A stretch of 64,000 nucleotides of DNA from the NCBI RefSeq assembly GCF_053078305.1, contig NZ_CP166879.1; one strand, written 5' to 3'. The notes beneath the pieces are model-generated. The model was given only the letters and a program-made list of their open reading frames with translations. It made no database searches and had not been told where the DNA came from. Below, in pieces: positions 32,963 through 39,131 of the stretch (position 1 is the stretch's first letter; each line of letters starts with the position of its first letter). Position numbers and translations under genes: made by a program.

Positions 32963-34594
32963 TCAGTGCTTCACAATGTACATATTCCGGGTGTAGGTAT
33001 TATCCAGCGGATCTTTGCCGGTATAACCACCAACCCACGGTTTCACCAGACGCGCATTCACGTAGTAATAAACAGGAACAATGGCCGAATCCTTATCCAG
33101 CTGTTGTTCTGCTTTAGTGTACAGAGCTGTGCGCTGCGCCTCGTCAGTCACTTTCAGCGTTTCCGCCATAATGCTGTCAAAGGCCGGGCTCTTATAATGC
33201 GCGGTATTCATCGAGCTGTTCGACAGCATGGTGTTCAGGAAGGAAGTTGGTTCGTTGTAGTCAGCACACCAGCCTGCACGGGCCACATCAAAAGTACCCT
33301 GGTGACGGGTGTCGAGGAACGTTTTCCACTCCTGGTTAACCAGTTTGACGTTTACACCAATGTTTTTCTTCCACAATGAAGAGGCAGCAATCGCCAGCTT
33401 TTTATGCAGATCGGAGGTGTTATACAGCAGGTTGATGGTCAACGGTTTGTCTGCGGTATAACCCGCTTCAGCCAGCAGTTTTTTCGCTTCTTCGTTACGT
33501 TTTTCCTGGCTCCAGCCAAACCATTCTGGCTGAGTCAATTTTGCGCCATCAGTATACGGTGGAGTGTAACCATAGGCGGGCATGTCGCCCTGCGCTTTCA
33601 CTTTATTAACAATGATATCGCGGTCCATACCTAGTTTCAGTGCGGTACGCACACGCACATCGTTGAATGGCGGTTTCTGGTTGTTAATTTCGTAATAGTA
33701 AGTGCACAGGTATGGATCAACGTGAACTTCGTCCGGGATCTCTTTTTTCAGCTTCTGGAACAATTCGATCGGCATGTTGTTATAAGTCATGTCGATTTCA
33801 CCACTACGGTAGCGGTTGACATCGGTAACTTCAGAAGCAATAGGCAAATAGGTTACCTGGTTAATAACGGTTTTCGCGTTGTTCCAGTAGGTTGGGCTGC
33901 GTTCAAGAACGATTCGTTCGTTTACGACCCAATCTTTTAAGGTATAGGCACCGTTGGTGACGATATTACCAGGCTGGGTCCATTTTTCGCCGAATTTCTC
34001 GATAGCGGCTTTTGGCACCGGTGAAGTTGATGGGTGAACAAGTAATTTATAGAAGTACGGAACGGGTTCACTTAAGGTGACTTCTAATGTGTGATCATCA
34101 ATAGCTTTCACGCCGAGATCGGTAATCGGTTTTTTCCCTTCAAGAATTTCATCAATACCGGCGATATGCCCATATTGCAGATAACTGGCATACGGAGAAG
34201 CAGTGTTCGGATCAACAGAACGTTGCCAGCTATACACAAAGTCTTGTGCTGTGACTGGCGTGCCATCAGACCATTTCGCATCTTTACGCAAATGGAAGGT
34301 CCAGACTTTCGCGTCTTTATTATCCCAGGATTCAGCGACGCCAGGTGCCGGATGGCCGTCAAGATCGCTGACCAGTAAGCCTTCAAACAGGTCTCGGCTG
34401 ATATTAGACTCCGGAACACCTTCAATTTTGTGCGGATCTAATGACTGAACTTCTGAACCATTGTTACGTACCAGCGTTTGTTTTTCCGCCAGTGTGACGC
34501 CTGCGGGTACATCAGCTGCCAGCGCGACATTCCCTGCCATTAGCGCAGCCAGAACGCCAGCTGCTACTAAACTTCTCTTGGTGATGTTGGTCAT
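32963..34594 (-). CDS. oppA: Periplasmic oligopeptide-binding protein
   Basis: 543 aa from MTNITKRSLVAAGVLAALMAGNVALA. Confidence 0.95.
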   Translation of the reverse strand: MTNITKRSLVAAGVLAALMAGNVALAADVPAGVTLAEKQTLVRNNGSEVQSLDPHKIEGVPESNISRDLFEGLLVSDLDGHPAPGVAESWDNKDAKVWTFHLRKDAKWSDGTPVTAQDFVYSWQRSVDPNTASPYASYLQYGHIAGIDEILEGKKPITDLGVKAIDDHTLEVTLSEPVPYFYKLLVHPSTSPVPKAAIEKFGEKWTQPGNIVTNGAYTLKDWVVNERIVLERSPTYWNNAKTVINQVTYLPIASEVTDVNRYRSGEIDMTYNNMPIELFQKLKKEIPDEVHVDPYLCTYYYEINNQKPPFNDVRVRTALKLGMDRDIIVNKVKAQGDMPAYGYTPPYTDGAKLTQPEWFGWSQEKRNEEAKKLLAEAGYTADKPLTINLLYNTSDLHKKLAIAASSLWKKNIGVNVKLVNQEWKTFLDTRHQGTFDVARAGWCADYNEPTSFLNTMLSNSSMNTAHYKSPAFDSIMAETLKVTDEAQRTALYTKAEQQLDKDSAIVPVYYYVNARLVKPWVGGYTGKDPLDNTYTRNMYIVKH

Positions 34595-35331
34595 TGTTTT
34601 TTGGACTCCCTCATTATAATTACTGGTATTAACCAGCATGTGTAATCCCGGAATGGGACCCTGCACAGGCTCGGAGACTTTCTGCTGTCAGGTTACTTTA
34701 TCGTTACGGATTGCTATCACCGACTTTATTTATTCTGGTGATTCAGACGATCACCTTATGTCGATTCGTACTGTGTCTCCCCTGTCGAGACACATTATTC
34801 TTTCGCGATGCTCTTTAATTGTTAATTATTCTCATTACCAATAAAGAATCGCCTGGCGGTTGCTCGGAAAGTACCAAATGCGCTTCTTACTCGCCAATAC
34901 ATTTTGCAAAATTGTTAAGCAATTCTCTTTTATTGACCGTATCAGAATCTATAGCTTGCATCCATGCCTTAACAAATATCTTTAAATTCAATCAAATAGA
35001 GATTGGTTAAGCATGTCTATCTTTTCTGATTACAGTTCCAGTAGTGAAATGCACAATAATTTAACAATTGATTATTATTTAGCACTTTCCTCTACCAAAG
35101 GCAGTGGAATTACTAATATCATTTCAATTATTCTTCAGCAAGCCCAGGATTATGATGTGGCGAAAATAACATGATGGTGAGGAGAAGCAGTTAAGGAAAT
35201 CCTTATAACTAACTGTAATTTGAGAAGAATATTTTTACCTATTCCTTTTGCTTTTGATAACTGCGCGGGAACAAAGTAAAAATAATGACGAAGTAAACGG
35301 AGCATGGCAGCTCCGTTTCATTTGAAAGGAA

Positions 35332-35979
35332 TTAATTAAGCAGGCCGGGGAAAATCCCCTTAATACCAGTAACGATAAATTCAATCCCCAATGCCATCAG
35401 CAATAGCCCCATAATACGCGTAATCACGTTGATGCCGGTCTGGCGTAAAACCCGTACCAGCCACGGTGCCATGCGGAACAATCCCCAGCAACATAAAGCG
35501 AACAATGCAATAGCCACAAAGAAACCAAACAGATAGCTAATGCTGTGATAACGCGTACCCCAGACGATGGTAGAACTGATCGCCCCTGGCCCCGCCATCA
35601 ACGGCAACGCCAGTGGCACCACACCAATGCTTTCACGTACCGCGGTTTCTGATTTTTCTTGCTTGTTCTGTTTATCCTCGCCAAGCTTGCCGCTGATCAT
35701 TGACATCGCTATTGTCACCACCAGGATACCCCCGGCGATACGGAACGAATCAATTGATATACCAAAAAGTTGTAGAATCGTGTCGCCGAGAAAAAGCGAG
35801 ATCCACAAGATAATGGCCACGGACAGGTTGGCTGTAAGGTTAGTTTTGTTTCGCGCTGCCGCTGTCTGATAACTGGTCATGCTGATAAAGACGGGAATAA
35901 TCCCTACCGGGTTGACCAGCGCAAATAACCCGATGAAAAATTTGAAGTAAACGGGAAAATCAAAAAGGGTCTGAATCAC
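35332..35979 (-). CDS. ychE: MarC-family inner membrane protein YchE
   Basis: 215 aa multi-TM. Confidence 0.9.
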   Translation of the reverse strand: MIQTLFDFPVYFKFFIGLFALVNPVGIIPVFISMTSYQTAAARNKTNLTANLSVAIILWISLFLGDTILQLFGISIDSFRIAGGILVVTIAMSMISGKLGEDKQNKQEKSETAVRESIGVVPLALPLMAGPGAISSTIVWGTRYHSISYLFGFFVAIALFALCCWGLFRMAPWLVRVLRQTGINVITRIMGLLLMALGIEFIVTGIKGIFPGLLN

Positions 35980-36455
35980 GGTTAGCTCCGAAGCAAAAGC
36001 CGGATAATGTTAGCCATAAATAAGGTTGAAAAGACGCGCTGACAATACGCCTTTTGACAGCATTTTTCACCTCCTAACTACTTAAAATTGCTATCATTCG
36101 TTATTGTTATCTAGTTGTGCAAAACATGCTAATGTAGCCACCAAATCATACTACAATTTATTAACTGTTAGCTATAATGGCGAAAAGCGATGCTGAAAGG
36201 TGTCAGCTTTGCAAAAATTTGATTTGGATCACGTAATCAGTACCCAGAAGTGAGTAATCTTGCTTACGCCACCTGGAAGTGACGCATTAGAGATAATAAC
36301 TCTAATGTTTAAACTCTTTTAGTAAATCACAGTGAGTGTGAGCGCGAGTAAGCTTTTGATTTTCATCGGTTAAGCAAATCATCACCGCACTGACTATACT
36401 CTCGTATTCGAGCAGATGATTTACTAAAAAAGTTTAACATTATCAGGAGAGCATT

Positions 36456-39131
36456 ATGGCTGTTACTAATGTCGCTGAACTTAACGCACTCGTAGAGCGT
36501 GTAAAAAAAGCCCAGCGTGAATATGCCAGTTTCACTCAAGAGCAAGTAGACAAAATCTTCCGCGCCGCCGCTCTGGCTGCTGCAGATGCTCGAATCCCAC
36601 TCGCGAAAATGGCCGTTGCCGAATCCGGCATGGGTATCGTCGAAGATAAAGTGATCAAAAACCACTTTGCTTCTGAATATATCTACAACGCCTATAAAGA
36701 TGAAAAAACCTGTGGTGTTCTGTCTGAAGACGACACTTTTGGTACCATCACTATCGCTGAACCAATCGGTATTATTTGCGGTATCGTTCCGACCACTAAC
36801 CCGACTTCAACTGCTATCTTCAAATCGCTGATCAGTCTGAAGACCCGTAACGCCATTATCTTCTCCCCGCACCCGCGTGCAAAAGATGCCACCAACAAAG
36901 CGGCTGATATCGTTCTGCAGGCTGCTATCGCTGCCGGTGCTCCGAAAGATCTGATCGGCTGGATCGATCAACCTTCTGTTGAACTGTCTAACGCACTGAT
37001 GCACCACCCAGACATCAACCTGATCCTCGCGACTGGTGGTCCGGGCATGGTTAAAGCCGCATACAGCTCCGGTAAACCAGCTATCGGTGTAGGCGCGGGT
37101 AACACTCCAGTTGTTATTGATGAAACTGCTGATATCAAACGTGCAGTTGCATCTGTACTGATGTCCAAAACCTTCGACAACGGCGTAATCTGTGCTTCTG
37201 AACAGTCTGTTGTTGTTGTTGACTCTGTTTATGACGCAGTACGTGAACGTTTCGCAACCCACGGCGGCTATCTGTTGCAGGGTAAAGAGCTGAAAGCTGT
37301 TCAGGACGTTATCCTGAAAAACGGTGCGCTGAACGCGGCTATCGTTGGTCAGCCAGCCTATAAAATTGCTGAACTGGCAGGCTTCTCTGTACCAGAAAAC
37401 ACCAAGATTCTGATCGGTGAAGTGACCGTTGTTGATGAAAGCGAACCGTTCGCACATGAAAAACTGTCCCCGACTCTGGCAATGTACCGCGCTAAAGATT
37501 TCGAAGACGCGGTAGAAAAAGCAGAGAAACTGGTTGCTATGGGTGGTATCGGTCATACCTCTTGCCTGTACACTGACCAGGATAACCAACCGGCTCGCGT
37601 TTCTTACTTCGGTCAGAAAATGAAAACGGCTCGTATCCTGATTAACACCCCGGCTTCTCAGGGTGGTATCGGTGACCTGTATAACTTCAAACTCGCACCT
37701 TCCCTGACTCTGGGTTGTGGTTCCTGGGGTGGTAACTCCATCTCTGAAAACGTTGGTCCGAAACACCTGATCAACAAGAAAACCGTTGCTAAGCGAGCTG
37801 AAAACATGTTGTGGCACAAACTTCCGAAATCTATCTACTTCCGCCGTGGCTCCCTGCCAATCGCGCTGGATGAAGTGATTACTGATGGCCACAAACGTGC
37901 GCTCATCGTGACTGACCGCTTCCTGTTTAACAATGGTTATGCTGATCAGATCACTTCCGTACTGAAAGCAGCAGGCGTTGAAACTGAAGTCTTCTTCGAA
38001 GTAGAAGCTGACCCGACCCTGAGCATCGTTCGTAAAGGTGCAGAACTGGCAAACTCCTTCAAACCAGACGTGATTATCGCGCTGGGTGGTGGTTCCCCGA
38101 TGGACGCCGCGAAGATCATGTGGGTTATGTACGAACATCCGGAAACTCACTTCGAAGAGCTGGCGCTGCGCTTTATGGATATCCGTAAACGTATCTACAA
38201 GTTCCCGAAAATGGGCGTGAAAGCGAAAATGATCGCTGTCACCACCACTTCTGGTACAGGTTCTGAAGTCACTCCGTTTGCGGTTGTAACTGACGACGCT
38301 ACTGGTCAGAAATATCCGCTGGCAGACTATGCGCTGACCCCGGATATGGCGATTGTCGACGCCAACTTGGTTATGGACATGCCGAAGTCCCTGTGTGCTT
38401 TCGGTGGTCTGGACGCAGTAACTCACGCCATGGAAGCTTATGTTTCTGTACTGGCATCTGAGTTCTCTGATGGTCAGGCTCTGCAGGCACTGAAACTGCT
38501 GAAAGAATATCTGCCAGCGTCCTACCACGAAGGGTCTAAAAATCCGGTAGCGCGTGAACGTGTTCACAGTGCAGCGACTATCGCGGGTATCGCGTTTGCG
38601 AACGCCTTCCTGGGTGTATGTCACTCAATGGCGCACAAACTGGGTTCCCAGTTCCATATTCCGCACGGTCTGGCAAACGCCCTGCTGATTTGTAACGTTA
38701 TTCGCTACAATGCGAACGACAACCCGACCAAGCAGACTGCATTCAGCCAGTATGACCGTCCGCAGGCTCGCCGTCGTTATGCTGAAATTGCCGACCACCT
38801 GGGTCTGAGCGCACCGGGCGACCGTACTGCTGCTAAGATCGAGAAACTGCTGGCATGGCTGGAAACGCTGAAGGCTGAACTGGGTATTCCGAAATCTATC
38901 CGTGAAGCTGGCGTTCAGGAAGCAGACTTCCTGGCGAACGTGGATAAACTGTCTGAAGATGCATTCGATGACCAGTGCACTGGCGCTAACCCGCGTTACC
39001 CGCTGATCTCCGAGCTGAAACAGATTCTGCTGGATACCTACTACGGTCGTGATTATGTAGAAGGTGAAACTGCAGCGAAAAAAGAAGCCGCTCCGGCTAA
39101 AGCTGAGAAAAAAGCGAAAAAATCCGCTTAA
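36456..39131 (+). CDS. adhE: Bifunctional acetaldehyde-CoA/alcohol dehydrogenase
   Basis: 891 aa; long AT-rich 5' leader upstream. Confidence 0.97.

Follow-up and report, generated by a model that had tools for sequence, protein, structure and literature searches.

A 53-codon open reading frame antisense to the oppA P1 promoter and leader of Escherichia coli is probably a chance frame

Transcription of oppA in E. coli K-12 is known to start at two promoters, P1 and P2, and to produce a long 5′ untranslated region (Igarashi et al., 1997; Carrier, Lalaouna and Masse, 2023, PMC9988348). The two start sites, P1 (+1) and P2 (+246), were confirmed by primer extension, and P1 fusions were reported to be active (PMC9988348). 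The same work placed an RNase E cleavage at +341 in the oppA leader and showed that MicF pairs with this leader at +372-393, about 120 nt 5′ of the AUG (PMC9988348). In Salmonella, the oppA 5′ UTR yields OppX, a sponge RNA for MicF (Matera et al., 2022, as cited in PMC9988348), while no stable 5′-UTR fragment was detected in E. coli by Carrier et al. (PMC9988348). Repression of the oppA promoter by Lrp is likewise a classic case, and ChIP shows two strong Lrp peaks there (Kroner et al., 2018; Ziegler and Freddolino, 2023, PMC10127797). An antisense open reading frame (ORF) is not discussed in the K-12 oppA promoter papers.

The locus examined here is the same as that of the K-12 studies. It lies in the stretch of DNA that we analysed (the window, 64,000 nucleotides), which is from E. 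coli; over this locus the window is 100% identical to strain A16, and its orientation is reversed relative to K-12. An initial annotation, made from the sequence alone, had proposed a possible ATG-initiated, 54-aa ORF between oppA and ychE. The frame exists and its translation is exactly the peptide quoted at that time (predicted peptides of the frame include GSGITNIISIILQQAQDYDVAK and DWLSMSIFSDYSSSSEMHNNLTIDYYLALSSTK). Read from the window sequence, the ORF starts with ATG and consists of 53 codons plus TGA, and the length of 54 aa was thus in error. Because the stop codon ends at 35174, the end that had been given (35177) was 3 nt too far. The surroundings had been correctly described as an AT-rich region of roughly 740 bp upstream of oppA: the spacer measures 737 bp with a GC content of 0.30-0.39 in 150-nt windows.

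Position of the frame relative to the oppA promoters and leader

The published oligonucleotides allowed the K-12 promoters to be placed on the window (Table 1). Oligonucleotide EM4528 (T7-oppA) starts at the +341 cleavage site and maps to 34765, which puts P1 +1 at 35105 and P2 at 34860. The reverse primer of the P1 promoter fusion, EM5064, ends at 35105, and the primer of the P2-only construct, EM1320, starts at 35102. At P1 the extended -10 element is followed by 7 nt and then by A(+1), and at P2 the same distance of 7 nt separates the extended -10 element from an A at 34860. P1 falls below the threshold of our consensus scan, with hexamer matches of 3/6 and 4/6 plus the extended -10 TG. With the promoters at these positions, the hairpin at 34794..34772 is internal to the leader and lies by the RNase E site rather than at the 5′ end. 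Two other promoter candidates were rejected on the basis of the published primers: TTAACA-17-AAGAAT (34825..34797) as the proximal promoter, since P2 is at 34860, and the scan match TTGGTA-16-AATAAT (35098..35071) as the distal promoter, since P1 is at 35105.

The ORF is on the strand opposite both oppA and ychE, so it is antisense to the oppA leader and not part of it. It spans from P1 +93 to P1 -69 and covers the first 93 nt of the leader. The longer, 98-codon frame to which it belongs (see below) runs antisense from P2 -18 to P1 -69, and its ATG (34878-80) falls in the P2 spacer. The initial annotation had raised the alternative that this stretch is non-coding leader or H-NS-bound regulatory DNA. 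Non-coding DNA over oppA P1 and the leader agrees with our reading, except that the leader and promoter belong to the opposite strand. On the basis of the published mapping together with the conservation described below, the DNA here acts on the minus strand as the distal promoter and leader of oppA.

Table 1. Coordinates of features in and around the ychE-oppA spacer, in window positions
Feature	Position	Strand	Remarks
oppA CDS	32963..34594	-	ATG at 34594
ychE-oppA spacer	34595..35331		737 bp
oppA 5′ leader from P1	34595..35105	-	511 nt
MicF pairing site (+372..+393)	34713..34734	-	coincides with conserved block 34715-34729
RNase E site (+341)	34765	-	just 3′ of hairpin 34794..34772
oppA P2 TSS (+246 relative to P1)	34860	-	by arithmetic from 35105
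oppA P2 core	34868..34897	-	-35 TTGGCG (34897..34892), 15-nt spacer, extended -10 TGgTACTTT (34876..34868)
98-codon frame	34878..35174	+	WP_001211521.1 in many E. coli RefSeq genomes; interrupted in the window strain
Conserved block TTTGCAAAnTTGTTAAnCAATTCTCTTTTAT	34903..34934		P2 -43..-75, P1 +172..+203; underlies codons 9-19 of the 98-codon frame
TAA at codon 36	34983..34985	+	TCA or TTA elsewhere; cuts the 98-codon frame in the window strain
53-codon ORF	35013..35174	+	C-terminal remnant of the 98-codon frame, from internal Met46
Near-invariant inter-genus block	35049..35092		P1 +14..+57; contains imperfect palindrome AATAATTTAACAATTGATTATTATT
oppA P1 TSS (+1)	35105	-	published oligonucleotides placed on the window
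oppA P1 core	35113..35141	-	-35 TTGCTG (35141..35136), 17-nt spacer, extended -10 TGaTATTAG (35121..35113)
Conserved block upstream of P1 (-46..-67)	35151..35172		TATGATGTG..AAAATAACA; underlies the last codons of the ORF
ychE CDS	35332..35979	-	stop at 35332
adhE	36456..39131	+	

The window strain differs from the K-12 system in its P1 -10 hexamer, which is TATTAG in the window and TATTAT in K-12, and in having a leader without insertion sequence (IS) elements. The difference in the hexamer is at window position 35113, which is A in K-12 versus C in the window and 11 other sampled E. coli; the K-12 form, TATTAT, is nearer the consensus, and the same change is present in the published K-12 primer EM5064. 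We also observed IS elements in three K-12 sublines, inserted independently of one another at or just downstream of oppA P1 and within a stretch of about 113 bp (35008-35121). These are IS5U at 35079-82 (P1 +24) in MG1655, IS5 in the opposite orientation at 35008-11 (P1 +95) in NBRC 3301, and IS2 at 35113-20, within the P1 -10, in W3110. Each of these insertions separates or destroys P1. The clustering suggests either that this is a hot spot for insertion or that oppA expression has been under selection in the laboratory. Just upstream of ychE, at 36010-36063 on the minus strand, is the 17-aa small protein YchT (MLSKGVLSARLFNLIYG), as annotated in K-12.

Conservation of the spacer and loss of the frame outside E. 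coli

To compare the locus across species, the ychE-oppA spacer was fetched from 80 GTDB species and 76 sequences were aligned (the window, five non-coli Escherichia and 70 genomes from other genera). The spacer is about 720-800 bp long across the Enterobacteriaceae, with a few at 664-878. It contains solid blocks of 15-45 nt that are 80-99% identical over about 30 genera, and the segments between the blocks have diverged beyond recognition. The columns of P1 itself (CAGCAA and CTAATATCA) are 0.6-0.99 conserved in the 70 other-genus genomes, and the block at 34865-34880, in the P2 region, is 0.93 conserved across genera. Other blocks coincide with the MicF site (34715-34729), the hairpin by the RNase E site, as well as the Shine-Dalgarno (SD)/GcvB region.

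Conservation sets in about 13 nt ahead of the ATG that opens the 98-codon frame and ends just past its stop. The edges of conservation lie close to the boundaries of the ORF because the frame is bounded by the P2 -10 region on one side and by the element upstream of P1 on the other. The coincidence of the conserved ends with P1 and P2 elements accounts for the conservation as well as for the apparent start codon. The locus thus provides an example of promoter conservation that mimics a conserved start codon and C-terminus.

The near-invariant block under the ORF, at 35049-35092, could be an operator (perhaps for Lrp) or a leader element; the oppA promoter literature examined gives no function for it. 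A structured RNA in the opening part of the P1 leader was considered and set aside, since the leader's first 93 nt fold no better than shuffled sequences (z = -1.08) and the conserved block is too invariant for covariation. A search of Rfam over 33500-37000 at E <= 1 returned two chance eukaryotic matches only and no known RNA family. OppX comes from the homologous leader, and the block at the MicF site (34715-34729) is 0.91 conserved across genera; OppX differs from the ORF in being on the opposite strand and mostly downstream of it, and no Rfam match was obtained at the window locus. Conserved blocks in the window form two clusters separated by about 200 bp, and the two Lrp ChIP peaks of the oppA promoter, one of the Lrp-repressed promoters with multiple Lrp peaks, might belong to these clusters. 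Identifying the conserved palindromes as boxes for Fur, ArcA or Lrp would be speculative, and we do not make this claim.

The initial annotation had named disruption of the frame in close relatives as an outcome that would speak against a coding function, and this is what the comparison across Escherichia genomes showed. Stops interrupt the frame in all five non-coli Escherichia, and none of them has an ATG at 35013; in four, a 1-nt indel additionally throws the C-terminal part out of frame. Among the 70 genomes from other genera, AAG or AAC often stands in place of the start codon, the stop codon is not preserved, and a first stop is reached after 2-77 codons. The N- and C-terminal conserved blocks are 301-302 nt apart in these genera, and are therefore out of frame with each other. 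At window position 35142, E. coli and Escherichia sp. MOD1-EC7003 have CAGCAA-GCCC versus CAGCAAGGCCC in four other Escherichia species. It is this one nucleotide fewer, next to the P1 -35, that brings the C-terminal block into frame with the rest of the ORF.

In the inter-genus alignment, the three codon positions of the ORF have identities to the window of 0.65/0.62/0.62, as compared to 0.90/0.97/0.48 in ychE. There is no codon periodicity in the conservation of the ORF, which is found in solid blocks instead.

Coding potential and variation within E. coli

Upstream of the ATG at 35013 the frame is open as far as the ATG at 34878 except for a single TAA at 34983-85. Strain FDAARGOS_1249 has TCA at this position and an annotated 98-aa "hypothetical protein" (WP_001211521.1) that ends at the same stop. 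The 53-codon ORF is thereby identified as what remains of the C-terminal part of the 98-codon frame, starting at Met46. Three alleles exist in E. coli at window position 34984: C, the major allele, encodes Ser; T, found in at least 400 genomes, encodes Leu; and A, found in 436 genomes, gives the stop.

We asked how unusual frames of these lengths are in this spacer with 2000 dinucleotide-preserving shuffles. The longest ATG ORF in the shuffled spacer had a mean length of 52.5 codons and was at least 53 codons in 41% of cases. The length of the 53-codon ORF is thus not beyond chance (P = 0.41), and the spacer also has a longer ATG ORF of 68 aa (34638..34844, plus strand) antisense to the proximal oppA leader, which is itself spurious-looking. 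The length of 98 codons was reached in only 2.2% of shuffles, so that a young orphan gene retains a small probability.

The codon log-likelihood per codon was -0.15 for the 53 codons and -0.29 for the 98 codons. As a comparison, 27 window genes gave +0.29 +/- 0.10, and all ORFs of 50-110 aa taken together gave -0.18. The codon usage of the frame is that of spurious ORFs and is not host-like. The initial annotation had described a weak SD before the ORF; there is no SD-like sequence at all in the upstream 20 nt (CAAATAGAGATTGGTTAAGC), and none within 20 nt of the ATG at 34878 either. A simple consensus scan found no promoter-like site on the plus strand upstream of 34878 or 35013, and the only one nearby was inside the 53-codon ORF. 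Searches of Pfam and NCBIfam gave no match to the frame at E <= 10. Among 5.8 billion proteins there were 51 homologues, and those with an organism name were from Escherichia or Shigella except for one labelled Enterobacter hormaechei. The homologues vary widely in length, with many different truncated lengths among them.

Within E. coli, we compared 13 sequences. Among these, 15 sites of the 98-codon frame vary, at 3/7/5 for codon positions 1/2/3, and nine of the changes are non-synonymous (two of them nonsense) and six synonymous. There is thus no bias toward the third position among the substitutions in these 13 sequences, and the density of SNPs is 5.1% in the 98-codon frame versus 3.9% in the rest of the spacer. 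The 53-codon part has 3 synonymous and 3 non-synonymous changes.

A larger census was made with 30-mers, which megablast finds only at near-exact match, and six haplotypes covered 97.5% of genomes. The S36* allele (TCA>TAA, 34983-85) is present in 436 of 5426 complete E. coli genomes and the W43* allele in 552 of 5426. A premature stop therefore interrupts the 98-codon frame in at least 988 of the 5426 genomes (at least 18%), from two independent nonsense alleles. The intact haplotypes account for 3298 + 41 + 359 + 603 genomes, such that the frame is open in about 80%. Since both nonsense alleles are upstream of Met46, the 53-codon tail stays open in E. coli, and the frame and its ATG were indeed open in 13 of the 13 sampled sequences.

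Annotation of the locus varies among genomes. PGAP annotates the 98-aa hypothetical protein in about two-thirds of 29 sampled genomes, and in four genomes the frame is intact yet unannotated. In strain EH031 the 53-aa form is annotated as WP_000021850.1 at the coordinates of the 53-codon ORF, and the sampled sequence translates identically. A different ORF is called instead in strain EC9682: it is 51 aa long and on the minus strand (WP_001362935.1). This ORF, at 35150-35305 in the window, starts within the ychE terminator and is spurious-looking. PGAP handling of the locus is therefore inconsistent, with three different "hypothetical proteins" or none. The RefSeq/PGAP entries WP_001211521.1 (98 aa) and WP_000021850.1 (53 aa) are ab initio calls without family support. 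No match for either accession or for the peptide strings of the frame was found in the literature.

Explanations for the open frame and its annotation

Together, these data indicate that the 53-codon ORF is very probably a non-functional chance open frame opposite oppA P1 and the first 93 nt of its leader, and we infer that no protein is made from it. Our analysis shows where the promoters lie with respect to the ORF, that relatives have lost the frame and that it has no coding signature. On this reading, the conserved DNA under the ORF is kept for oppA: for P1, for the element just downstream of its transcription start site and, further along under the 98-codon version, for P2. Minor differences that arose in the E. 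coli lineage would have opened the frame, among them the 1-nt difference beside the P1 -35. Once open, it would drift freely, and TCA>TAA in the window strain has already cut the 98-codon version and left the 53-codon tail. Several points speak against a chance origin, namely the rarity of a 98-codon length in the shuffles, the open state of that frame in about 80% of E. coli genomes, the 53-codon frame staying open in all 13 sampled sequences and the many RefSeq protein annotations, and they bear on the alternatives that follow.

It is improbable, although the best-surviving of these alternatives, that the 53-codon ORF is a pseudogene remnant of a young, E. coli-specific 98-aa orphan gene (WP_001211521.1) that is functional where intact and was inactivated here by the TAA at 34983-85. 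The persistence of the intact frame in most complete E. coli genomes, a length exceeding that in 97.8% of shuffles and its frequent annotation by PGAP would all fit such a gene. Against this are the two independent nonsense alleles, which are fixed in large lineages comprising 988 genomes, the absence of third-position bias among the substitutions, and a codon usage that matches that of spurious ORFs. The frame is also absent in the five sister Escherichia species and in other genera, and it lacks an SD, a promoter and homologues elsewhere. In addition, its conserved ends coincide exactly with elements of the oppA P1 and P2 promoters, and IS elements have inserted inside the frame in K-12 sublines.

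A related idea, to which we give a little less credence still, is that E. coli sensu stricto gained the 98-codon frame, with its 53-codon tail, very recently as a protein-coding gene arising de novo. Such a gene would have been born antisense to the P1-P2 leader by the 1-nt change beside the P1 -35, would have low translation in some lineages and would be in the process of being lost in others, including O157:H7-type strains and the window strain.

There is only a very faint prospect that the 53-aa ORF is itself translated, as a small protein, from an antisense transcript that crosses the oppA P1 region. The frame and its ATG are retained in every sampled E. coli sequence, WP_000021850.1 is annotated in at least one RefSeq genome, and 53-aa clusters are present among database proteins. 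These points are outweighed by a length at chance level, the lack of an SD, and a sole nearby plus-strand promoter-like site that is inside the ORF with none upstream. The ATG is missing in every non-coli Escherichia genome examined, synonymous and non-synonymous changes in E. coli are equal in number, and conservation is flat across codon positions. A study of small intergenic genes in O157:H7 Sakai, including its supplements, does not mention the locus or the peptide, which is weak negative evidence.

The least credible reading, and one that we regard as almost negligible, is a generic AT-rich, H-NS-coated spacer without sequence-specific function: GC is indeed 0.30-0.37 across 34925..35300, AT-rich curved DNA is the usual substrate of H-NS and K-12 has repeated IS5 and IS2 insertions here, yet conserved blocks shared by about 30 genera at a constant spacer length are not expected of a generic spacer, and promoters and RNA sites mapped by experiment coincide with the blocks. 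H-NS could bind alongside the promoter and leader functions. The nucleoid protein documented at the oppA promoter in the cited papers is Lrp (PMC10127797).

A chance open frame opposite a characterised promoter and leader makes the finding an ordinary one, and our understanding of oppA regulation is unchanged. The best explanation for the "hypothetical protein" annotation in this spacer is that ab initio gene calling produced an artefact on top of the oppA P1/P2 promoters and leader. The main value of these results is for annotation clean-up, since thousands of RefSeq E. coli genomes carry a 98-aa, 53-aa or 51-aa "hypothetical protein" at this locus.
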